This document shows positions 6,159 to 58,275 of a stretch of 64,000 nucleotides of DNA, piece by piece (the first letter of the stretch is position 1; every line of letters starts with the position of its first letter). The stretch spans positions 57,376 to 121,375 of the forward strand of contig NZ_JBKBXB010000003.1 of the NCBI RefSeq assembly GCF_046313975.1. Direction: 5' to 3'. The DNA is from Hyphomonas sp. Lineage in GTDB: Bacteria > Pseudomonadota > Alphaproteobacteria > Caulobacterales > Hyphomonadaceae. The notes beneath the pieces were generated by a model. That model ran no database searches and was not told where the DNA came from. It saw only the letters and a program-made list of their open reading frames with translations. The position numbers were made by a program, and so were the translations under genes.

Positions 6159-6671
6159 TCAGTTGTATCCGCTCTGCACCACGACCGAGATGTTGCCATC
6201 GCCGCGCTGGCGCACGGTCACATCCTGGCCATTGCCCACCTGGATGATGCCCGAGGTGTTGTTCCAGCCGTCCTGGTCGGCCACCGCCCTGTTGTTCGTG
6301 CCGATCTGCGCGATGCCCGACACGTTGCCATAGCCGGTCTGCAGCGTATCGGCGCGCAGGTTGCGCCCATCCTGCCCGGTCACGGCGAAGTTGTTCTCGC
6401 CGATCTGTGCCGTGCCCACGCTGTTGCGCGTGCCATACTGGTCCATGCGCAGGAAGTTGTTGTAGCCGGACTGCACGCCGCGCGCATACTGGCCATTGCC
6501 GCTCTGCACGACGACCGTGCCGTTGCGTGATCCCTGCTGGGCGGCTGCGGCGCCGTTATTATAGCCCGACTGGTCGATACGCACCCGGTTGCGGGGGTCT
6601 GCATGGGCCACGCCCAGGCTGAAAACGAGCAGGGCAGCGGCAGCGGTGGAAAGTAAACGGTTCATGTTCAT
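6159..6671 (-). CDS. csgA: Curlin major subunit (CsgA-like)
   Basis: AGGAG RBS, signal peptide ending AHA, regular 11-aa Q-x-G-x-x-N strands. Confidence 0.85.
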   Translation of the reverse strand: MNMNRLLSTAAAALLVFSLGVAHADPRNRVRIDQSGYNNGAAAAQQGSRNGTVVVQSGNGQYARGVQSGYNNFLRMDQYGTRNSVGTAQIGENNFAVTGQDGRNLRADTLQTGYGNVSGIAQIGTNNRAVADQDGWNNTSGIIQVGNGQDVTVRQRGDGNISVVVQSGYN

Positions 6672-6741
6672 ACTCCTGTGTTGCGTCTTGCGCCTGGGAG
6701 GAAACAGCGCTCTGACACGCACAGGAATGACGCGCTCGCTC

Positions 6742-6777
6742 TGAACGCGGTTTGAACGGGCGGTTCAGGTTTGTTCA
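6742..6777. promoter_or_regulatory. Paired TGAAC direct repeat followed by inverted GTTCA pair upstream of csgA
   Basis: tGAAC-gcggttt-GAAC (6743-6757) then GTTCA at 6763 and 6773. Confidence 0.4.
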
Positions 6778-6984: not shown

Positions 6985-7665
6985 ATGGACCAGACCGCGC
7001 CCCCGCCGCAGACCACGATGCTCGCTGAAGCCGAAAGCCTCATCGGCTGGCTGATCGTCCAGCTCGAGGAGTTGCTCGCGCCGGGTATCGTCCGTTCACG
7101 GCCTGTCCTCCTGCAGATCTGCCGCCACTTCCTGCTGCCCGCGGAAGCGGCGCTCCGCCGCATCATCCATCTCATCGCCGCAAAGCTCGAGCCGGAAGCC
7201 CCAAAGCGCACTGCAATCCTCCCCCGTTCACGGGGGAGGTGCCCCGAAGGGGCGGAGGGGGAACGGCAATCAGACCGCACCCCGCTCTTCTGCCTCACCG
7301 AGCCGCTGCCCGGTGGCCGCGGTCCGCGGCGCGCCCGTATCCCGCCCGGCAAGGAGCCGCGCATCCGCAATTTCGACGATCCCGTCATTCAGCCGCCCGT
7401 GCGCCTGCCGCCCGATACGTCGGCTTACGAAGCCCGCCTGCTGCGCCGGCTTGCCGCGCTGAAGGCGGCTTTCGCCCAGCCAGCCAGGGCGGCCCGCCGC
7501 CTGCAGCGGCTTGCGCAGCGCCTCATACCGGAAAAGCCTGTGCTCTCGCTCTGGCGCATCCCGGGCTACACGGCCCGCCCGATCACGGACAAGGGGCGTC
7601 AGGTCCTTGACGATCTCAACACTGCCGTCGCCCGCACCCGCACGGACTATCACGACTCCGGCTGA
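6985..7665 (+). CDS. Hypothetical protein carrying an in-frame palindromic repeat
   Basis: 226 aa ORF, Arg/Pro/Leu-rich; no family recognised. Confidence 0.55.
   Translation: MDQTAPPPQTTMLAEAESLIGWLIVQLEELLAPGIVRSRPVLLQICRHFLLPAEAALRRIIHLIAAKLEPEAPKRTAILPRSRGRCPEGAEGERQSDRTPLFCLTEPLPGGRGPRRARIPPGKEPRIRNFDDPVIQPPVRLPPDTSAYEARLLRRLAALKAAFAQPARAARRLQRLAQRLIPEKPVLSLWRIPGYTARPITDKGRQVLDDLNTAVARTRTDYHDSG
7218..7261 (+). repeat. REP/CIR-like palindromic element
   Basis: cctcccccgttcacgggggaggtgccccgaaggggcggaggggg; same architecture as 60542-60586. Confidence 0.65.
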
Positions 7666-8156: not shown

Positions 8157-8285
8157 TTTGGGTCCTCCTTGGGTCTGGAACAAAAACAGAACTTCTGAGT
8201 GCTGTCGAGTCGCATTTTGCCCCGCGCGTTTGACGGCGCGCCGGCGGCGCGCTTCAAACAACCGGCGACAGAGGAGCCGAGCCCC

Positions 8286-9263
8286 ATGACCCTTCCCAAT
8301 GCCTATGCGATCCGGGTGCACCAGACGGGCGGGCCGGAGGTGATGGTGGCCGAAGCCGCGCCGCCGCGGGCGCCGGGGCCGGGCGAAGCGCTGGTGCGCC
8401 AGACGGCGGTGGGGGTCAATTTCATCGACACCTATCACCGCACGGGGCTGTACAAGCTGCCCCTGCCGTTTGTTCCGGGCTCGGAAGGGGCGGGGATCGT
8501 TGAGGAGGTCGGTGAGGGCGTGACGCATCTGGGGCCCGGCGACCGGGTGGCCTATGTCGGGCGCGGCACTTACGCGACGCATTATACCGGGCGGGCGGCG
8601 GGCATGGTGGCGCTGCCGGCAGCGATCAGTGACGAGGAGGCCGCTGCCGTGATGCTGAAAGGCATGACGGCCTGGATGCTGCTGGAGGAAATCCGCCCGC
8701 TGCAGAAGGGGGAGACGGCCCTGGTCTGGGCGCCGGTGGGCGGGGTCGGCTCGCTGCTCACGCCCTGGGCGAAGCATATCGGCGCGCGGGTGATCGCGGT
8801 GACATCGAGCGCGGCGAAGGCAGAGCGGGCGAAGGCGCTGGGCGCGAGCGATGTCGTGATCGGTTACGACGATGTGGCGGAAAAGGTCCGTGAGCTGACG
8901 GGTGGCAAGGGTGTGGATGTGGCCTATGACAGTGTGGGGAAGATTTCGGCGGAGGCGTCGCTGTCGAGCCTGAAGCCGCGTGGCTGGTTCATTTCCTACG
9001 GCAATGCATCCGGGCCGGCTGATCCGATCCCGCCGGGGCGTCTGGCGGCGGGCGGCTCGCTGGTGATGACACGGCCGACGCTGTTCAATTTCACCGATAC
9101 GCCGGAAGCGCTGGCGCGGGCCTCGCGGCGGCTGTTCGGCTTGCTGGCGGAGGGCGTGCTGGAGGCGGATATCGGCCAGCGCTTCCCCCTGAAGGATGCG
9201 CCCGAAGCGCACCGGGCGCTGGAGAGCGGGACGACGCGCGGCGCAACGCTGCTGATGCCCTGA
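8286..9263 (+). CDS. qor: NADPH:quinone oxidoreductase (MDR family)
   Basis: GVNFIDTYHRTGLY, PGSEGAG, GGVGSL, YDSVGK. Confidence 0.88.
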   Translation: MTLPNAYAIRVHQTGGPEVMVAEAAPPRAPGPGEALVRQTAVGVNFIDTYHRTGLYKLPLPFVPGSEGAGIVEEVGEGVTHLGPGDRVAYVGRGTYATHYTGRAAGMVALPAAISDEEAAAVMLKGMTAWMLLEEIRPLQKGETALVWAPVGGVGSLLTPWAKHIGARVIAVTSSAAKAERAKALGASDVVIGYDDVAEKVRELTGGKGVDVAYDSVGKISAEASLSSLKPRGWFISYGNASGPADPIPPGRLAAGGSLVMTRPTLFNFTDTPEALARASRRLFGLLAEGVLEADIGQRFPLKDAPEAHRALESGTTRGATLLMP

Positions 9264-13406: not shown

Positions 13407-13440
13407 GTTTCTGCTTTGTTCTATGGAACAAATGGTGTAC
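13407..13440 (+). promoter_or_regulatory. LexA (SOS) boxes of recA
   Basis: GAAC-aaatggt-GTAC at 13426-13440, the alphaproteobacterial recA-type box; degenerate GTTT-N7-GTTC at 13407-13421. Confidence 0.8.
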
Positions 13441-13510
13441 ATGAGGCTCAGGCATGGCAATCGGGGGCCTTGCCAAACCGGCCCCCATGGTAGACCAAAG
13501 GAGACGACTC

Positions 13511-14602
13511 GTGACCAAACCCGTTCTCACTCTCGTGGACAAGGAAACCGGCGTGGACAAGCAGAAGGCCCTCGAAACGGCGCTCGGAAATATCGAGCGG
13601 TCTTTCGGCAAGGGCTCGGTGATGCGCCTCGGCGAGAAGAAGACGATGGACATCGAGGCGGTCTCCACCGGCTCGCTCGGGCTCGACATCGCGCTCGGCA
13701 TCGGCGGCCTGCCAAAGGGCCGGATCATCGAGATTTTCGGGCCGGAAAGCTCCGGCAAGACGACCCTGTCGCTGCATTGCGTGGCCGAGGCCCAGAAGAA
13801 TGGCGGCGTCTGCGCCTTCATCGACGCCGAACACGCGCTGGACCCCGTCTATGCGGCGAAGCTGGGTGTCGATCTGGATGATCTGCTGGTCTCGCAGCCT
13901 GATTCGGGCGAGCAGGCGCTGGAGATTGCGGACACGCTGGTGCGCTCCGGCGCGGTTGATCTCCTGGTCATCGACTCGGTGGCGGCGCTGACGCCGCGGG
14001 CCGAACTCGAAGGTGAGATGGGCGATCAGCTGCCGGGCCTGCAGGCCCGCCTGATGAGTCAGGCGCTGCGCAAGCTCACGGGCTCGATCTCCAAGTCGAA
14101 ATGCATGGTGATCTTCATCAACCAGATCCGCATGAAGATCGGCGTGATGTTCGGTAACCCGGAGACGACCACCGGAGGCAATGCCCTGAAATTCTACGCC
14201 TCCGTGCGCCTCGACATCCGCCGTATCGGCCAGATCAAGGAGCGCGAGGAAGTCATCGGCAACCAGACGCGCGTGAAGGTTGTGAAGAACAAGGTCGCCC
14301 CGCCCTTCCGTCAGGTGGAATTCGACATTCTTTACGGGGAGGGGATTTCCAAGACCGGCGAATTACTCGATCTTGGGGTCAAGGCCAATGTCATCGAGAA
14401 ATCGGGCTCCTGGTTCTCCTATAATGGCGAGCGCATCGGGCAGGGCCGCGAGAAGGCGCGCCAGTTCCTGAAGGACAACCCGGCTGTGGCCAACGAGATT
14501 GAAGACGCCATCCGGCGCAATGCAGGCCTGCTGGCAGAAGAGCTGCTGGCGGCGGGCATGGACGCTGGCGGCGAGGACGCCCCGGACGCCGCAGAAGGCT
14601 GA
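13511..14602 (+). CDS. recA: Recombinase A
   Basis: [34 protein letters not shown]; GTG start after AAAGGAG. Confidence 0.98.
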
Positions 14603-17939: not shown

Positions 17940-17992
17940 AAAAGATGGTCGGAGTGAGAAGATTCGAACTTCCGGCCCCTAGCTCCCGAAGC
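17940..17992 (-). repeat. att site (displaced 3' half of tRNA-Pro)
   Basis: 51/53 identical to 58193-58245; homology stops 2 nt 5' of the anticodon loop. Confidence 0.93.
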
Positions 17993-18089: not shown

Positions 18090-19250
18090 TCACGCCTTCT
18101 TGCGCGGCCGGACGCGGGCGGCAGCGGCGCGGGCGAGCTGGGCCTGGCTGCCATAGATCGCGCGCATCGCTGCGCCCTCGCCGGGCGCCCAGCCCATGCG
18201 GATTTCCATGTCGATATCGCTGGCGCCGTCCGCGTAGCCGCGCGTGATACAGGTGCCCCGGAAGTCATGCAGGTGTTTCTGCATCAGCGCCGCCTTGTCT
18301 CCGGCCGTCTTCAGCGTCTTTGCGGCGCGCACCTTCGCGGCCTCGAAGGCCTTGCGCAGCTGGCGTCCGTCCGTCCACGGATTGCCGTCATCGCGGCGGC
18401 AGACGCGCGCGTGCGGTGCGCCGCGCCGGCCGAGCGCCTTTTTCAGGGCAGGGGTCAGCGGCGGGCAGGCGGCACGCCTCCCGCCGCTCTTGTTGGTTCG
18501 GCGCACGATATGGCCGGCGCGGGCATCCACCTCCGCCCAGGTGAGCTCGACCAGGTCCTGCCGGCGCAGACCCGTGTGCCAGAGGATTTCGAGCGTGCGG
18601 GCGAGGCCGGGGCCGGCGGCGAGGCACAGGGCCTTGAATTCTGCCTCGGTGATCAGGATGTCGGCGCGGCCGGGGCCTTCGTCCAGATGCGCGATGCCGC
18701 GCGCCGCGTTGCGCGTGAGGCGTTCCTCGTCGACACCCCATTCGAGGATCCTGCCCAGCACCTGCAGGTGGATGTTCGCGGCGCGCGGCGTCGCGGCCAT
18801 GCCGGCATGCCATTGCTTGATGCGGGCCCGGATGCCGGGCGCCTGCATCGCCTTCAGGCTGACCGGGCCGAAGGTGGCGACCGCCTTGCCGATGGCGGGG
18901 CCCCACAGCGCGCGCGTCGAGGGCGCAAGGCTGAGGAAAGCGGGGCTGGCGCGGAAGGCCGCGGCAAGGCCCTCGAAGGTGGCGGCAGAGGGTTTCGGGA
19001 AGGCGGTGTCCGACCAGGCCGCGGCGAGCGCGGGGGCGCCGGCGGATTCCGCCGCGAAGGCCTCGGCATCGGTGGTGCCCGCGAAGGCGGCGACCTGCGG
19101 CCCGCCCCGCCAGGCATACCAGAAGATGCGGGTTGCGACGCGGGAGCGCTTAACGACGCGGTGCGCGCCGGGCAGGCGCAGAGGCGCCTTCGGTGTGAGG
19201 CGCGGCGAGCCGGGCGTCGAGCTCGGCGAGTTCCTGGGCGATGAGGTCAT
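18090..19250 (-). CDS. int: Tyrosine integrase (start uncertain, 19217-19268)
   Basis: Catalytic R (GLRRQD), K (TNK), HxxR (HDFRG), W (MGW), Y (IYG); N-terminal beta arm-binding segment; adjacent to att. Confidence 0.9.
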   Translation of the reverse strand: MTSSPRNSPSSTPGSPRLTPKAPLRLPGAHRVVKRSRVATRIFWYAWRGGPQVAAFAGTTDAEAFAAESAGAPALAAAWSDTAFPKPSAATFEGLAAAFRASPAFLSLAPSTRALWGPAIGKAVATFGPVSLKAMQAPGIRARIKQWHAGMAATPRAANIHLQVLGRILEWGVDEERLTRNAARGIAHLDEGPGRADILITEAEFKALCLAAGPGLARTLEILWHTGLRRQDLVELTWAEVDARAGHIVRRTNKSGGRRAACPPLTPALKKALGRRGAPHARVCRRDDGNPWTDGRQLRKAFEAAKVRAAKTLKTAGDKAALMQKHLHDFRGTCITRGYADGASDIDMEIRMGWAPGEGAAMRAIYGSQAQLARAAAARVRPRKKA

Positions 19251-19440
19251 CGGGGGCGTCCTCGTCATTGGCGGGCGAGGGCACCATCCGCGCCGGGGCG
19301 GCGCCGTCAAGGGCCGCGTCGATGCGGCGCCGGTCGAAGCGCAGCGGGCGCAGGGTGTGCGGCGCGACCTGCAGCGTGCGCGGGTCGAGCCCGGCAAGAT
19401 AGGCTTTCGCCTGCTGCAGCGTCATCAGGCGGGGCGTCAT
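19150..19440 (-). CDS. Excisionase-like small DNA-binding protein
   Basis: PRLMTLQQAKAYL...FDRRRIDAALD; overlaps the int 5' end. Confidence 0.65.
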   Translation of the reverse strand: MTPRLMTLQQAKAYLAGLDPRTLQVAPHTLRPLRFDRRRIDAALDGAAPARMVPSPANDEDAPDDLIAQELAELDARLAAPHTEGASAPARRAPRR

Positions 19441-20541: not shown

Positions 20542-20877
20542 TCAGCTCTCGCTGTCTTTGAGGCCCTGCAGCGTGGAATGCACGACGCGGCGGTGTTTCG
20601 GGTTTGATCTGAGGTGCCCGATGAGTTCGCGTTCCTCTGCTGACAGGCCGTCACCGTCGCGGATCAGGCGGCAGGGCGGAACGTCTAGGGCCTGAGCGAT
20701 TTCCAGCAGCTTCTCGACTGTCACGCCCCGTTCGCCCGTTTCATACCGTCCGATCGTCACTGGCGTCGTGTTCAGCGCTTCTGCAAGCTGCTCCTGGGTC
20801 AGGCCAGCCTTCACGCGCTCCTCGCGGATCAGCAGGTGCGTATCCGCCGAGGGTTTCGAGTAGGGCTTTCTGGGCAT
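20542..20877 (-). CDS. CI-like XRE repressor lacking an S24 peptidase domain
   Basis: 111 aa; GLTQEQLAEALNTTPVTIGRYETGER HTH; divergent from the cro-like gene. Confidence 0.88.
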   Translation of the reverse strand: MPRKPYSKPSADTHLLIREERVKAGLTQEQLAEALNTTPVTIGRYETGERGVTVEKLLEIAQALDVPPCRLIRDGDGLSAEERELIGHLRSNPKHRRVVHSTLQGLKDSES

Positions 20878-20896
20878 GCCCAATGATGGCGCAGCC

Positions 20897-21009
20897 CCCG
20901 AAAAGGTAACATTACCCAATCGGTAGAAAATAACCGGCTGCAATTGACAGTGGGGCCGAATCACCTGAGCGAAAAATACCGAAACGGTTGTTTTGTAAAC
21001 CGGAGAGGT
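20897..21009. promoter_or_regulatory. Right operator/promoter region (OR)
   Basis: ACC-N5-GGT at 20914, 20978, 20999; variant at 20897; TTGACA at 20944-20949. Confidence 0.75.
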
Positions 21010-21015
21010 TCACAG

Positions 21016-21543
21016 ATGGTGAAAAATCCACCCGAAACGGCAATGCGGCTGCGATGGTACCAGCGCCTGCGCGGCCTCGCCAGCGAGGAGCTCGGGGCAG
21101 AGCTTGCCGTAACGGGCGTGGCGGTCAGCCGGTATTTCAGTGGCGCGAGGTCTCCGCGCCGCAAGGTTTCGGATCGGCTCAAAGCCCTCACGCACGGCGT
21201 CATTCATGCGGGCAATTATGCCGAAGAGGTGACCGCCCAGGAAGCGGCCGAGATGATGGCCGAGATCGAGCGGCGGGCCGAGGCAGGGGCCTTTCTGGGT
21301 GTGGCAATCCCTGGCGGAATTATGTCGGGTTCGCCTAATGCGGCGTCGATGGTGGCGATGTCAGCTCCAGCAAGGTCAGCAGACGGACCGCAAGAGCAAT
21401 TGCCTCCTGCTGGGGCACAAAGAACTGCTGCACTGGGATCCGCTGATCCTGCGGGCCTAACTGTTCCAGGCGAAAGCCAATCCCTGGCTGACCTGCAACC
21501 GCGCCAACCCGCAGACTCACCGCGTCGGCGAGGTGCAGAATGA
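21016..21543 (+). CDS. Cro-like HTH protein with a C-terminal extension antisense to 21335-21601
   Basis: GGAGAGG RBS; SEELGAELAVTGVAVSRYFSGARSP HTH. Confidence 0.75.
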   Translation: MVKNPPETAMRLRWYQRLRGLASEELGAELAVTGVAVSRYFSGARSPRRKVSDRLKALTHGVIHAGNYAEEVTAQEAAEMMAEIERRAEAGAFLGVAIPGGIMSGSPNAASMVAMSAPARSADGPQEQLPPAGAQRTAALGSADPAGLTVPGESQSLADLQPRQPADSPRRRGAE

Positions 21544-21601
21544 CATCGCCGTTCTCATCGACAGCCCAGCCTTCGGCGTCGTTCTTAAATGGTTTTCGCA
21601 C
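21335..21601 (-). CDS. Antisense accessory protein A (88 aa), paralog of 22023-22286
   Basis: AAGGA RBS + GTG; shared K-x-[ND]-AEGW-x-x-D-[ED]-x-G, RL[ED]Q and EA-x-x-L-x-x-RL motifs. Confidence 0.7.
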   Translation of the reverse strand: MRKPFKNDAEGWAVDENGDVILHLADAVSLRVGAVAGQPGIGFRLEQLGPQDQRIPVQQFFVPQQEAIALAVRLLTLLELTSPPSTPH

Positions 21602-29216: not shown

Positions 29217-29488
29217 TGGCCGTCTATGTCGATGACATGCACACCTCGCCGCTCGGCCGCCTCGGGCGCATGAAGATGTGCCACATGATAGCCGACACGC
29301 GCGAAGAGCTGCTGGCGATGGCAGACCGGATCGGCCTCGACCGGCGCTGGCTGCAGAAGGCCGGGACGGCGCAGGAGCACTTCGATGTCAGCCTGGCGAA
29401 GCGGGCCGAAGCCGTGAAGGCGGGCGCAGTCGAGATCACGATGCGCGAGCTGGCGATGAAGACACGGGCGAAGCGGGAGGCGCTGTGA
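29216..29488 (+). CDS. DUF4031 domain protein
   Basis: MAVYVDD...MCHMIADT..EL...A..IG...W.Q...HFDV. Confidence 0.88.
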   Translation: MAVYVDDMHTSPLGRLGRMKMCHMIADTREELLAMADRIGLDRRWLQKAGTAQEHFDVSLAKRAEAVKAGAVEITMRELAMKTRAKREAL

Positions 29489-29766
29489 TGGGCTGGGCAA
29501 AGAAGATATCCGGCGCCAACCTGATCATGCGCGCCCCGAAAGGCGAGGAAGACCGCGTTGGCGACCTGCATGTGTTCCGCAACCGCGGCGGGTTGATCTC
29601 GGCCTGGGCGCTGAGCGACGAAGAGGTCGCCGAGATCGTCCGTACCCGCACCGTTTACCTGAACATCATGGGCGGCGGCATGCCGCCGGTATTCGTCGCC
29701 GCAGAATCCGAAATGCGGGCCTTCAGCCTCGACTATGGCGGCATCCTGCCGCCGCAGGAGGTTTGA
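29488..29766 (+). CDS. Hypothetical phage protein
   Basis: Coupled start; ISAWALSDEE...PPV pattern. Confidence 0.65.
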   Translation: MGWAKKISGANLIMRAPKGEEDRVGDLHVFRNRGGLISAWALSDEEVAEIVRTRTVYLNIMGGGMPPVFVAAESEMRAFSLDYGGILPPQEV

Positions 29767-30164
29767 TGGGTACGCGTACGGAAACGATGGTGCAGCCGTT
29801 GTTGCCGGGGCTTCGTTTGCCACTGGTGACGGGCATCGATGGCGACGGGCCTGTGGTCGCAGAGAGCGCCTGCGAGGTGATCGGCTTTCGCGACCCGAAG
29901 CGGCGGTACCTGCACGCGGAAGTCCTGATCCATCAGCAGGCGGATCATCAGTGGATATGGGCCATCTGCTATGGCGCAGAAGAAAGCGGCGGCGGCTATC
30001 TGCCGGGCCCGAAATGGGGAAAGTTTGCCGCTTGCCGCGAGGATGCGCTGGTGTTTGCGCTGGATGAGCTGACCGGGCGCGTGCGGCGCGGCGCGCGGGC
30101 CACGCCGTTCGCGCGGAAGATCATCGCCTGGGCGCAGGCGAAGCGCGATGAGGTGTCGGCATGA
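29766..30164 (+). CDS. Hypothetical phage protein
   Basis: Coupled TGATG start. Confidence 0.6.
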   Translation: MGTRTETMVQPLLPGLRLPLVTGIDGDGPVVAESACEVIGFRDPKRRYLHAEVLIHQQADHQWIWAICYGAEESGGGYLPGPKWGKFAACREDALVFALDELTGRVRRGARATPFARKIIAWAQAKRDEVSA

Positions 30165-30171
30165 GCCCCGT

Positions 30172-30426
30172 TCAGGATTTCTCCGGGTCCGCCCAGCTGG
30201 CGCGGCCGTCCGTAGGGCCGGGGATTGTGATGCCGGGCGCGCGCGTAGCGCTGGGCGTGATGTCGAACGGGCCGGCGAGGCTGGCGGCGAGCTCGCGGGC
30301 GAGCGCCTTGCGGGCGGCGTCAGCGCCGTGTGGCTGGGCGAGCTCGCGCAGGCGGCTCTTGCGCGTGACGGCCAGGCGCACCGCAAGATGCGTCTCGAGG
30401 GCGGCGAGGGTTTCGGCATCGATCAT
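30172..30426 (-). CDS. Small antisense protein with LexA box; candidate antirepressor
   Basis: GGAG RBS 8 nt before ATG; opposite to the surrounding operon; LexA box abuts the RBS. Confidence 0.65.
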   Translation of the reverse strand: MIDAETLAALETHLAVRLAVTRKSRLRELAQPHGADAARKALARELAASLAGPFDITPSATRAPGITIPGPTDGRASWADPEKS

Positions 30427-30438
30427 GACTTGCGCTCC

Positions 30439-30453
30439 GTTCCGGGGATGTTC
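30439..30453. promoter_or_regulatory. LexA box GTTC-N7-GTTC
   Basis: GTTC-cggggat-GTTC, exact alphaproteobacterial consensus, in the 60-bp gap between divergent genes. Confidence 0.7.
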
Positions 30454-30486
30454 TCTTAGGCCCGAATTCCACCGGAGGGAAGGAAC

Positions 30487-30936
30487 ATGACGGAATCAGC
30501 TGTGAACGCCTATCGAACCCGGCCTGCCTGCCGCCGGGCGGGCCTGTGGGCAGGCCTGTGGATGCTTGGCGCCTGCGCCTCGCCGGGCGCCGCGGCTCAG
30601 GGCCTCCCGATGGTGCGCGACTGCGCGCCCGGCGGGTTTGTCGGCTTTCCGGAGACCGTCTGGACGGCTGAGGCGACCGCCGTGATCGATGGCGACAGTT
30701 TCTGCCTGGGTGAGGCCGAGATCCGGCTCAGGCGCTTCAATGCGCCGGAATGGGACGAGCCGGGCGGCCCGGAGGCGCGGGCCGTCCTGGCGCAGATCCT
30801 CGCCGCGCGCGGCCCGGTCACCTGCGAGGCAAAAGCCCGCCACGGCGACCGCGTGATCGCCGCCTGCACGCTGGCCGATGGGGAGAGCCTCGACGACGCG
30901 CTCCGGAATGCCGAAACGCCCCGCGACGGACCCTGA
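30487..30936 (+). CDS. Thermonuclease (SNase) family protein, probably exported
   Basis: VIDGDSF, IRLRRFNAPE; N-terminal hydrophobic stretch with LGAC lipobox. Confidence 0.8.
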   Translation: MTESAVNAYRTRPACRRAGLWAGLWMLGACASPGAAAQGLPMVRDCAPGGFVGFPETVWTAEATAVIDGDSFCLGEAEIRLRRFNAPEWDEPGGPEARAVLAQILAARGPVTCEAKARHGDRVIAACTLADGESLDDALRNAETPRDGP

Positions 30937-31029
30937 CGCCCGCCTGACCTGATTTCCTGACCTTTCCACACGCCCGGCCGGGGCCTTCGCGGCGCCGGAC
31001 GCCTTTTTCATGCCCGGAGGGCCCTGCCC

Positions 31030-32175
31030 ATGTCATTCGAGCTCGGTGAATCCGTCCGCCGGTGCGGCCTCGAAACCGGGGGCCGGCGTGACCTCTTGGA
31101 AGCGCTTGCGACCTATGCGGATGACGAGACGGGCCTTGCCACGGTCTCGCAGCTGTCGCTGGCGCTGCACGCGGGCCTCACCGAGCGCCATGCGCGGCGC
31201 ATCCTGGCCCAGCTCGTCACCGATGACCGCCTCGAGGGCCTTGTGCGGCTGATCTCGGCACCCAGGGGGCGCGGGCGGACGGCGGTCTACCGTCTGCACC
31301 TGGAGCGCGTCGAGCCGCTGGCGGCAGCGGTCAAGATCGCGCAGCGGGCCTGCCATGCGGGCGCCGCCAAGGCGCTGATGGCCTCCGGGCTCGTCGGCGC
31401 GGCGCTCTCTCCGCACAACATGCGGCGCGTGTTCGGTTGCCTGCGCAGCCTGTGCCTTGCCGAAGGGCAGGCGCCTGCCGCTGCCGCCATCGCCGCCCAG
31501 GCGGCCCTCTTCGAAGCGGCGCTCGCCGCCGAAGCGCCCGGCATGCTCGCGGACGGCTCGCCGCTGCCCTTCGGGCGGCTGGCGAAAAGCCCTCTGCCCG
31601 CTTGTGGAAAGCCTGTGGAAAAGCGGCCCGGAAACCCGGACATTTTGTCCGAAAACCCGGACATTTTGTCCGGACCCCATAATAAGGATTCTTCCCCCTC
31701 AAGGATTACCCCCCTTTCGCGCGACCCCGCGCGCGAGGGCGCTGTGGATTGCCCGGTGACGGACGCAAAACCGGCGGCAGCGCCCGGGGAGCGCGCGCAG
31801 GGCTTGCAGGGGGTCTGTGAGGCTGCCGGAGCGCCCCCCACACGCGAAGTGCCTGCGGAGGGACCTGACGCGGCCCCAAAACCGGCAAAAGCGCTGCTCT
31901 CGGCCGCAACGGCGACCGGCGGGTTCCTGATCGATCCAGAAGCCGTTCTCGGCCACCTGACCGGCGGGCGCGAAGCCGTCCGCGCCTTTCTCGAGGCTTT
32001 CCGCCACCGCCCGGCCCGCGTCACGCCGCAGGGCGTCCTGGCCATCGCCGCCAGCGGCGCCGGGGAGGCTTTCACGCTGGCGCGCGACTGGATCGATCCG
32101 CTCCTCGCCTGGGCTGCTGAAAGCGGGCTTTCAGGGGTGGTTTTCGAAGAGGGCCAGCCGCGCGGGCCGCCTTGA
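31030..32175 (+). CDS. Phage replication initiator (HTH, lambda O-like layout)
   Basis: N-terminal winged HTH (SQLSLALHAGLTERHARRILAQL), central DNA repeats, low-complexity linker. Confidence 0.7.
   Translation: MSFELGESVRRCGLETGGRRDLLEALATYADDETGLATVSQLSLALHAGLTERHARRILAQLVTDDRLEGLVRLISAPRGRGRTAVYRLHLERVEPLAAAVKIAQRACHAGAAKALMASGLVGAALSPHNMRRVFGCLRSLCLAEGQAPAAAAIAAQAALFEAALAAEAPGMLADGSPLPFGRLAKSPLPACGKPVEKRPGNPDILSENPDILSGPHNKDSSPSRITPLSRDPAREGAVDCPVTDAKPAAAPGERAQGLQGVCEAAGAPPTREVPAEGPDAAPKPAKALLSAATATGGFLIDPEAVLGHLTGGREAVRAFLEAFRHRPARVTPQGVLAIAASGAGEAFTLARDWIDPLLAWAAESGLSGVVFEEGQPRGPP
31632..31672 (+). repeat. Iteron pair (putative phage origin)
   Basis: aaacccggacattttgtccg x2 at 21-bp period, each containing CGGACA-ttt-TGTCCG. 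Confidence 0.7.
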
Positions 32176-32296
32176 CCGGTGTGCTCGGCGCGGATGGCCG
32201 CTGCGCGGCCGCGCCTGTGCCTTCGCCTTGCTCGTGGGGTGCCTGCCGCGAGCGTTCCGCCGAATAATCCGCCCTCTGACGATTGGACCTGCCCAG

Positions 32297-33253
32297 ATGC
32301 CCCGCGCCCGCCCCCGTCCCGCCCTTTCGCTCACCCTGTCGCCTCAGCGCCGATCTGAGCTGGCGGCCTATGCTGCCGAAGTCAAACGCGCCGGAGAAGC
32401 TGCGCGCAAGCGGCGTGAAGGCGCCGTGAAGCCCCCGGGCGAAGCAGCGGAAGGCCGGGCGGCGGCAGGGCGGCGCCTGCGCAGCGCGAAGCGGCGCGCG
32501 AGCCTCACTGAAACCCTGACGCTGCGGATGGCGCGCCTGCGGGGAAAACTGGCCGAGGCGCAGCGTGAGGGCGCCTGGGAGCTGGCCGTCACCCTCAACC
32601 GGCAGATCGTCGAAACGCGGCGCAAGCTCACCTTGGCCGAAAGCCGCGCCGCGGCACGGGCCGACAAGCTCGCCCGGCGCGGACGCGGCCAGACGCGCGA
32701 CCGTTTCGCCCAGCTGGTCAAAAACTCGGACCGGCTCAGCGACGTGCATCTCGAGATCGCCGATGCGCTGCGCGACCAGGTGCTGATGGCAGGTATGGCA
32801 GGCGGAACGCCCGGCGCACGCTCAGGACAGGCCGGCGACGGCAAGGGCGAAATGCGCACGGTGCTCAGCATCGTGGGACTGGTCGAGCTGGGCGAGGATT
32901 ACTGGGGCGGGCTCGGCACGCCGGGCGTCGGTGGCGACTGGGCCGGCGGGCGTAAACGCTCGATCCGGCGGGTCTGCCGGGCGAGTGACGGTGGGGCGGC
33001 GGCCGCTGCGGACGCGGTGCGCAAGGCGCGGATGCTGGCGCGCACCTTCGCGGAGGCGTGCCGTGATTCTGCCGGCGATCATCCGTGGGCGGCCGAGGTC
33101 GCGGTGCGCGTGATTCTGCTCAATCAGGATCTCTGGGGTGCTGTGCAGGCGTGCGCTGCCATCCGGAAAACAGACGGGCTGAAGATCGCGGAAATCGTAA
33201 TGGCTGCAGGGCTTGAGGCGGTGGCGCCGAAGGTCGGCGTGGCTGTGGAATAA
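32297..33253 (+). CDS. Putative late-gene regulator (Q/GafA-like position)
   Basis: Last gene before the late promoter region; N-terminal coiled coil, C-terminal helical domain; function inferred from position. Confidence 0.5.
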   Translation: MPRARPRPALSLTLSPQRRSELAAYAAEVKRAGEAARKRREGAVKPPGEAAEGRAAAGRRLRSAKRRASLTETLTLRMARLRGKLAEAQREGAWELAVTLNRQIVETRRKLTLAESRAAARADKLARRGRGQTRDRFAQLVKNSDRLSDVHLEIADALRDQVLMAGMAGGTPGARSGQAGDGKGEMRTVLSIVGLVELGEDYWGGLGTPGVGGDWAGGRKRSIRRVCRASDGGAAAAADAVRKARMLARTFAEACRDSAGDHPWAAEVAVRVILLNQDLWGAVQACAAIRKTDGLKIAEIVMAAGLEAVAPKVGVAVE

Positions 33254-33263
33254 TGAGGGGGTG

Positions 33264-33444
33264 TTGACATGGGAACCGGAAAACCCTTCCTTTCGCCACG
33301 TTGCAGAGCTGTGGCCGAAGCGCTCCGGCGCGCACACCACCGGCCCTCCGGCCCTGGCCCTGCAGCGTCCTTCTTGCACACAGAGAGCCTGGCAGCGCCG
33401 CTGGTGCGCTCCGCAACTGCCGTCCCGGCAGCGCTGCCTTTTTT
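33264..33444 (+). promoter_or_regulatory. Putative late promoter and terminator
   Basis: TTGACA at 33264; ggcagcgc (33391) / gcgctgcc (33431) followed by T6. Confidence 0.4.
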
Positions 33445-33456
33445 GTCAGGGTGCGG

Positions 33457-33942
33457 ATGATGGCGATGCGGCCTCCGGTCATCGGGCCAAAGCGGGCAAC
33501 GGGCGCAGCCCGGGTCAGCCCGGCGGACTATGGCGACCGCTCGGCGGCAGATCACGATCAGCGCGGCTCGGCGGCCAGCCGGGGTTATGGCGTCCGGTGG
33601 CGGGCGGCGCGGGCAACCGTGCTGCAGCGCGAGCCGCTGTGCCGTCCGTCGCTGAAGCTGGACGGGCGAACGGCTTCGGCTGACACGCTCGATCACTGGT
33701 ATCCGCATTGCGGGCTGAGCTGGTTGTTCTGGCGCAAGGAGCTCTGGGTGCCGATGGCGAAGGCCTGGCATGACGGGCCGAAGCAGGAGCTAGAGGATCG
33801 CGGTGAGCTGGCGCTCGATGCGGCGGCGCTTGAGCTCGGGCTTCCCGTGCTGAGCGCGCTCGAGCCGCTGCGCGTCTGGGAGTGGCGGACGGCCTACGCC
33901 GAGGCCCGCAAGACCGGCCTGCGCCGCCCCTGGGGGGGGTAG
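33457..33942 (+). CDS. Phage HNH protein (gp74-like), degenerate
   Basis: RGY..RW..AR...L.REPLC...DHWYPH..LFW...HDGPKQ; Zn-Cys and central Asn largely replaced. Confidence 0.75.
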   Translation: MMAMRPPVIGPKRATGAARVSPADYGDRSAADHDQRGSAASRGYGVRWRAARATVLQREPLCRPSLKLDGRTASADTLDHWYPHCGLSWLFWRKELWVPMAKAWHDGPKQELEDRGELALDAAALELGLPVLSALEPLRVWEWRTAYAEARKTGLRRPWGG

Positions 33943-58192: not shown

Positions 58193-58245
58193 AAAAGATG
58201 GTCGGAGTGAGAGGATTCGAACCTCCGGCCCCTAGCTCCCGAAGC
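58193..58245 (-). repeat. att site within the intact tRNA-Pro
   Basis: Direct repeat of 17940-17992. Confidence 0.93.
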
Positions 58246-58275
58246 TAGTGCTCTACCAGGCTGAGCTACACTCCG
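58199..58275 (-). tRNA. tRNA-Pro(CGG)
   Basis: 77 nt cggagtgtagctcagcctggtagagcactagc-ttCGGga-gctag...ggttcgaatcc...cacTCCGACCA; full cloverleaf, encoded CCA. Confidence 0.97.

Follow-up and report, generated by a model that had tools for sequence, protein, structure and literature searches.

The locus raises the question of how a prophage whose repressor carries no peptidase domain is connected to the SOS response of its host, and whether a small antisense gene with a putative LexA operator directly in front of it provides that connection. The window, which is the whole stretch of 64,000 nucleotides that was analysed, corresponds to positions 57376-121375 of contig C3 in a host genome of 3.17 Mb with 67% G+C. 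A prophage of about 40.3 kb, which appears complete, occupies positions 17971-58245 of the window. Its ends are marked by a 22-bp direct repeat, TCCGGCCCCTAGCTCCCGAAGC, found at 17971-17992 and 58224-58245, and one copy of the repeat is located inside the tRNA-Pro(CGG) gene at 58199-58275. The host genes recA (13454-14602) and alaS are found just left of the prophage. The integrase gene is located at 18090-19397 on the minus strand, and a rightward early operon on the plus strand extends up to position 30164. To the right of the early operon follow a conserved pair of unknown genes (31030-32175 and 32228-33253) and a gene for an HNH endonuclease (33301-33942) directly upstream of the genes for TerS and TerL; the portal gene is also found in the rightward region. 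An HNH gene immediately before TerS and TerL is the usual layout of HNH-assisted cos packaging. No close isolated phage was found: among 50,697 phage records, none had a TerL match reaching 41% identity. In the related prophages L002, L003 and L007, the early operon contains its own homologue of DNA polymerase III beta, the sliding clamp (e.g. L017:7810-8970).

The CI-like repressor of the prophage is encoded at 20542-20877 on the minus strand, and a divergent cro-like gene starts near position 21017, with the divergent promoter region at 20878-21016. The repressor is a protein of 111 residues in which HTH_3 was the only domain detected, followed by two C-terminal helices within residues 80-108, and the earlier statement that it has no peptidase domain was borne out. 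In an AlphaFold2 model, the repressor was made up of seven helices, and a beta domain was absent. It has full-length homologues in L001, L017 and L019, identities among the four proteins being 41-50%. Counted from a conserved start, all four have 111-118 residues; a conserved RDGDGLS linker connects the HTH_3 domain to the two C-terminal helices, and an S24 peptidase domain is missing from all of them. The contig of L005 probably holds a repressor with at least 90% identity to that of the window. Without an S24 domain, inactivation of these repressors in the manner of lambda is impossible. Furthermore, no perfect LexA box was found in the immunity regions of the window, L001, L017 and L019. 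Direct control of PR by LexA, as in CTX-phi or GIL01, was considered unlikely because of the absence of a box on the immunity promoters.

A gene for a WYL-domain protein was observed beside the repressor gene in L017 (2409-3458, 349 aa) and in L019 (2294-3262, 322 aa), two prophages that also carry the small, putatively LexA-gated gene described below. Unrelated ORFs are found in this place in the prophage of the window. The WYL protein may be a second, LexA-independent sensor of damage or of a ligand. A repressor candidate for L007 in G001 turned out to be a HipBA module and was a false lead.

The small gene, an orphan of 84 codons named P0001, is located at 30172-30426 on the minus strand, with the ATG at 30426-30424 and the stop codon at 30174-30172. 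A GGAG ribosome binding site is found on the same strand at 30435-30438, 8 nt before the ATG, and a perfect alphaproteobacterial LexA box of the form GAAC-N7-GAAC, GAACATCCCCGGAAC, at 30439-30453. The box covers positions -27 to -13 relative to the ATG and ends 12 nt before it. The earlier note had claimed this arrangement, and its coordinates were found to be exact. It had also described the gene as antisense to the early operon, which agrees with a minus-strand gene that is convergent with the last gene of the rightward operon (29763-30164, plus strand), with 7 nt between the two stop codons.

Long spurious ORFs are found everywhere in a genome of 67% G+C. The G+C contents at the three codon positions of the minus-strand ORF were 0.73, 0.61 and 0.87, which is the coding signature of the host genome. 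Differences between the small gene and each of its homologues were two to three times more common at the third positions of the minus-strand frame, and many of them were synonymous codon changes. The divergence of the coding DNA between loci was roughly 25-35% and was highest at third positions. An ORF on the plus strand, 30161-30490, which has ATGA overlaps with both neighbours, was considered as the real gene and rejected. Its G+C contents by codon position (0.59, 0.72 and 0.80) are atypical, its translation is rich in arginine, serine and alanine like out-of-frame readings of GC-rich genes, and the substitutions track the frame of the minus strand. An opposite-strand ORF over the small gene was not called in L002, L003, L005 and L007, and a single overlapping call of 68 aa was obtained in L001. 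The high G+C content at third positions, the third-position substitutions, the presence of homologues and the atypical signature of the plus frame establish that the small gene is real and under purifying selection.

GTTCN7GTTC is given as the SOS box of Caulobacter crescentus (da Rocha et al. 2008, as listed in PMC9578287), and the phage box is identical to the operator as listed there in its core direct repeat and its spacing. Perfect copies of the same motif were found before the host genes lexA (GAACACACGTAGAAC), uvrA (GAACAAAGTGTGAAC) and recN (GAACAAAACCGGAAC) and before an mmcB-like gene (GAACACAAGCAGAAC). The lexA box is followed by a third GAAC, and the boxes of uvrA, recN and the mmcB-like gene are located 11-90 nt from the gene starts. 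A box of the same class had been claimed for recA, and this was only partly correct: two copies are present, at 13407-13421 and 13426-13440, but each has one mismatch and none is perfect. The phage box shares with the alphaproteobacterial SOS box the direct repeat with a spacing of 7 nt, the position in a promoter region and the occurrence of the motif in front of core SOS genes. Its spacer is C-rich (ATCCCCG), whereas the spacers of the host SOS boxes are A-rich after GAACA.

The number of perfect boxes was compared with that expected by chance. Four were observed in the window against 1.29 expected from shuffled sequences, a value in line with the earlier estimate of about one per window, and 77 were observed in the genome (6.3 Mb, both strands) against about 69 expected from composition. 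Thirty of the 77 genomic boxes were found in the approximately 21% of the genome left uncalled by a crude gene call based on GC3. A single box is therefore weak evidence, and support for its function has to come from conservation.

Perfect boxes were also observed elsewhere in the host DNA. One of these, GAACAAAAACAGAAC (8178-8192), is located 7 nt before a gene for a Zn-dependent dehydrogenase/quinone oxidoreductase (8199-9263). A second quinone-oxidoreductase-like gene (G000 C2:149013-150097) has GAACAAAAGCAGAAC 87 nt upstream, and both oxidoreductases may belong to the host SOS regulon. Another perfect box, GAACGCGGTTTGAAC (6743-6757), is found between a curlin-repeat gene on the minus strand (6159-6722) and an unknown gene of 226 aa (6985-7665), and contig C44 of the host genome has another copy of this 15-mer. 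In another genome, G181, which has a related prophage, a triple GAAC repeat, GAACGCCCGTCGAACGCCCCTCGAAC (L052:5565-5590, G181:C67), was considered as a prophage operator and rejected, since the only boxes of G181 sit among host genes. The repeat is located in a non-coding stretch adjoining pcm and TolC-like genes of that host. An SRAP-like ORF that starts with MCNLY follows about 650 bp downstream, and the repeat is probably a host SOS operator.

The conservation of the box upstream of homologues, proposed earlier as a check, was studied in ten independent loci: the window, L001 (annotated as 'Hyphomonas sp.'), L002, L003, L005, L007, L009, L010, L011 and L012. Nine of them, all but L007, carry a perfect box, placed at -27 or -28 relative to the start codon. 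GGAG is present in eight of the nine box-bearing loci, and L003 has GGAT. Four different spacers occur in the box-bearing loci, ATCCCCG, ACCCCGT, ATCCCGC and AATACCA. Changes were observed at 0 of 64 core positions and at 9 of 56 spacer positions (Fisher p = 7e-4), although the loci are related and the p-values given here and below overstate their independence. Changes confined to the spacer are the pattern that selection on the half-sites would predict. In L001, L005 and L012, one to three additional bases are found between the box and GGAG, and the spacing of the half-sites and the distance to the ATG are unchanged. The second GAAC is thus more than a piece of the ribosome binding site. In 12-19 kb of L001, L017 and L019, no perfect box other than that of the small gene was found. 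The site of L007 (G126, a genome of the same genus whose lexA has the same box) has decayed to GACCAAGCGCAAGGA, and its homologue of the small protein also lacks the C-terminal motif.

The box could be a chance or relic match that was conserved through recent common ancestry. Chance alone predicts about 1.3 such matches in a window and about 69 in the genome, an identical 15-mer is found in six of the nine box-bearing loci, and the L007 homologue does without a box. When the comparison was restricted to the three diverged lineages, 9 of 21 spacer positions had changed against 0 of 24 core positions (p = 3e-4). The surroundings have not been preserved to the same degree: mean pairwise identity was 0.61 in the 20 nt upstream of the box and 0.40 in the 12 nt downstream, and the coding DNA differs to the extent given above. 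A chance or relic match is highly improbable against this background.

The box is positioned where bound LexA would probably block transcription of the small gene. A -10-like hexamer, TAAGAG, was read from the aligned upstream regions at 30453-30458 on the minus strand, its last base being common to the box. TAAGAG or TATGAG is found directly before the box in nine of the ten loci, and TATGAG is the form in most of the homologues. A putative -35-like hexamer, TTCCCT, is located at 30476-30481 on the same strand, 17 nt upstream of the -10-like hexamer, and overlaps the ribosome binding site of the divergent gene. In the alignment of the loci, a TTGCCC or TTCCnT hexamer is found 17-18 nt above the -10-like hexamer; TTGCCC is present in L001 and L005, and the hexamer of L012 is TTGCGC. 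A scan of 29400-31200 for strict sigma-70 consensus promoters and for terminators gave nothing useful and did not pick up the -10-like hexamer. The promoter is a reading of the alignment, and LexA bound to the box would cover its -10/+1 region.

On either side, the small gene has different neighbours from locus to locus. The convergent gene differs in nearly every locus, encoding an unknown protein of 133 aa in the window and an OmpR-type Trans_reg_C protein, a C5 methylase or other proteins elsewhere. The divergent gene of the window (30487-30936, plus strand) encodes a predicted lipoprotein of 149 aa with a staphylococcal-nuclease-like motif, IDGDS...RL..xxAPE. This nuclease-like lipoprotein is the neighbour in five loci and an unrelated protein is the neighbour in three (L001, L005 and L009). 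The family of the small gene was found only at one syntenic spot, in loci with phage genes, four contigs of at most 2.2 kb being too short to tell. Since the flanking genes vary on both sides, the operator is assigned to the small gene.

A second perfect box, GAACGCCTATCGAAC, is found at 30504-30518 on the plus strand, inside the first codons of the nuclease-like gene. It is overlapped by a box with one mismatch at 30493-30507, so that three half-sites 11 bp apart extend over codons 3-11 of this gene. The array resembles the triple repeat upstream of host lexA and is absent from all other homologous loci. From the presence of this array, LexA may also gate the rightward nuclease-like gene in the phage of the window. 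The operator could even serve mainly the divergent rightward unit, the nuclease-like gene and beyond, or both promoters, with the small gene being incidental. Only 60 bp separate the two divergent genes, the box of the small gene is 34 nt from the ATG of the nuclease-like gene, and two perfect boxes within 65 bp are unlikely to occur by chance, as estimated from the genome count. The distance of the box to the ATG of the small gene is nevertheless fixed in the homologous loci, and the second box is confined to the window. The divergent neighbour is unrelated in three loci, as described above, and in L002 and L003 a distance of about 260-270 bp separates it, going by the gene calls. An operator that serves mainly the divergent unit, or both promoters, is therefore considered unlikely. 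Control of the small gene by LexA is considered very likely, based on the match to the host SOS motif, the conservation of the box together with the gene and the association of the box with the small gene rather than with its neighbours.

The small protein belongs to a very small family. About ten sequences of the family were found in a collection of 15 billion proteins, seven close and two distant homologues in addition to the protein of the window. A profile search of 1.84 billion representatives contributed only two of these relatives, P0012 and P0013, and none beyond these were found in the genome, viral and metagenome collections searched. No family match was obtained in Pfam (even at E-values up to 10), PHROGs or NCBIfam, no match in a profile search of PDB sequences, and no structural match with Foldseek against PDB and BFVD. 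A tblastn search of the 50,697 phage records found nothing. The protein was rightly called unrecognised in the earlier note, as no known sequence family or fold was matched. It has no similarity to the twin antisense genes at 21335-21601. Three helices (residues 4-20, 23-29 and 35-51) and a disordered tail were predicted by AlphaFold2 with modest confidence (pLDDT 67.6, pTM 0.38). The parts conserved in the family are the N-terminal 55 residues and a tail motif, IPGPTDGRxSWA(E/D). No hydrophobic segment was seen by eye, and the charge, by residue count, is near neutral.

A model of three short helices, with a glycine-containing turn between helices 2 and 3, could belong to a DNA-binding regulator. 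The product would then act, for example, in excision, as an excisionase, or on the genes to the right, as their activator or antiterminator, and SOS would license excision or late expression and not the lifting of immunity. No excisionase was recognised beside the integrase, and the small gene is located at the junction of the early operon and the conserved genes for proteins of 381 aa and 341 aa, HNH endonuclease and terminase. The family and structure searches, however, gave no match to HTH, Xis or any other DNA-binding family even at the relaxed E-value, and no structural match. The candidate recognition helix consists mostly of alanine and leucine, and the gene is 11 kb from int. In the case of an excisionase, it also counts against this function that related prophages are found without the gene, and any prophage needs an excision factor. 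A role as DNA-binding regulator is improbable on these grounds.

The small gene was found in only two of 262 genomes of the same family, and the full-length repressor family in several more. The prophage of G127 (L044, G127:C1:272100-292099) has a TerL that is 87% identical and a repressor that is 67% identical to those of the window, and lacks the small gene. The prophages of G181 (L045) and G087 (L048) have repressors of the same family with 47% and 39% identity, and the small gene is absent from these as well. No perfect LexA box was found inside the three prophages, in the 48 kb around each repressor. With three related prophages that have the same repressor family and neither gene nor box, the cassette is facultative, and the repressor does not need the small protein as a partner. 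A facultative cassette fits an add-on SOS sensor and an accessory SOS-induced cargo equally well. Where both proteins were seen, the small proteins were more conserved (67-75% identity) than the repressors (41-50%), which does not suggest a tight one-to-one co-specificity.

If the small gene is controlled by LexA, its product could be another kind of SOS-induced accessory cargo (a moron). Possible roles are modulation of RecA or SOS as by DinI or PsiB, a block of division as by SulA or SidA, and a toxic or exclusion function. A cassette that is facultative in its prophage family and located in a region of swapped neighbours is typical of morons, and the sequence of the protein gives no pointer to repressor binding. 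In Gifsy, a dinI homologue is under the same LexA box as the antirepressor, and not every small SOS-gated phage gene is therefore an antirepressor (PMC3121763). The protein did not, however, match DinI or any other family in Pfam, PHROGs or NCBIfam, and the absence of a hydrophobic stretch (by eye) does not suit an inhibitor or toxin acting on membranes. The restriction of the family to a single syntenic spot in loci with phage genes also speaks against accessory cargo, and the SOS input would be otherwise unaccounted for in these prophages, where all visible repressors are non-cleavable. A cargo function is the main alternative, possible but somewhat less likely than an antirepressor. Should the product not be an antirepressor, the locus would still be a well-supported new phage-borne member of the alphaproteobacterial SOS regulon.

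An antirepressor that acts as the trigger of SOS induction is, tentatively, the single most likely function of the small gene product. With a non-cleavable repressor and no LexA box on the immunity promoters, a small protein gated by SOS presents itself as the obvious candidate to transmit the damage signal. Host LexA bound to GAAC-N7-GAAC in the lysogen would cover the likely start of transcription and keep the small gene silent. Upon DNA damage, RecA would be activated, LexA would cleave itself, and the small gene would be transcribed and translated from GGAG. The small protein would then bind its proposed target, the 111-residue HTH repressor, possibly through the conserved two-helix C-terminal extension of the latter. 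Release of the repressor from its operators would open the rightward early operon, and transcripts of the early operon, passing through the small gene in the opposite direction, would silence it once more. In this scheme we infer the binding of LexA, the promoter, the protein target and the interference loop alike. A still more speculative proposal is that the small gene and its box form a portable SOS-sensor cassette. Such a cassette would make otherwise non-SOS-inducible prophages of the Hyphomonas type inducible by damage, with an orphan three-helix protein with a PGPTDGRxSWAE tail neutralising a repressor without peptidase via its two-helix extension and with the head-on placement making the response self-limiting.

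What is known of prophage induction through LexA-controlled antirepressors comes almost entirely from enterobacterial phages, and no example of a LexA-to-antirepressor induction circuit shown in Alphaproteobacteria was found in the literature searched. The circuit proposed here, if true, would be the first of its kind shown in Alphaproteobacteria as far as the literature was searched, and the protein would represent a new antirepressor fold family. A function would thereby be given to an unannotated protein family. The locus is a test case for damage sensing in marine alphaproteobacterial prophages with non-cleavable repressors, and for whether such cassettes move between phages. Natural controls are available in one relative with the gene and no box and in three relatives without the cassette.

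In phage 186, the antirepressor Tum, a protein of 146 aa, is repressed by LexA through a gammaproteobacterial CTG-N10-CAG operator, and P2, which has no tum, is not SOS-inducible. The present locus is similar in having a single predicted LexA operator on the promoter of one gene away from the immunity region, a CI without autocleavage and a module that is present in some and absent from other close relatives. In contrast to Tum, the putative antirepressor described here has 84 aa and an unrelated sequence, its operator takes the form of a GAAC-N7-GAAC direct repeat, and its gene points towards the early operon in a convergent arrangement.

More generally, the features of an antirepressor module are found here in a predicted host-type LexA operator on the promoter of the gene and in a master repressor without S24. 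The module would work like those of Tum, AntC and Gifsy, although the small protein is not a member, by sequence, of any known antirepressor family. GfoA, GftA, GfhA and FsoA are small LexA-controlled antirepressors of the Salmonella prophages Gifsy and Fels-1 (PMC3121763). They are likewise small orphans, their LexA box is found beyond the replication genes on the downstream side, at a large distance from the immunity region, and they have no sequence similarity to the small protein of the window. The Gifsy antirepressor is co-transcribed with the dinI homologue in one LexA unit, whereas the gene described here stands alone and is antisense to the early operon. AntC of the linear plasmid-prophage N15 is an antirepressor of the SOS regulon directed against a non-proteolytic CI-type repressor (Mardanov and Ravin 2007, as cited in PMC10432266). 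The circuit logic of AntC is alike, and the protein family, the phage type and the host class are unrelated. Small orphan antirepressors and LexA-gated logic in known systems are also described in PMC9437464.

The TF-smORF modules of vibriophages provide a further comparison. In these modules, cI is inactivated by a small protein that lacks homologues and any predictable domain (Silpe et al. 2023, PMC10432266). They share with the locus of the window a small orphan protein and a gene in a divergent pair, and they are portable, as the module described here may be. The TF-smORF modules are switched on by a phage-encoded activator independently of SOS, whereas the input in the present case would be the relief of repression by host LexA.
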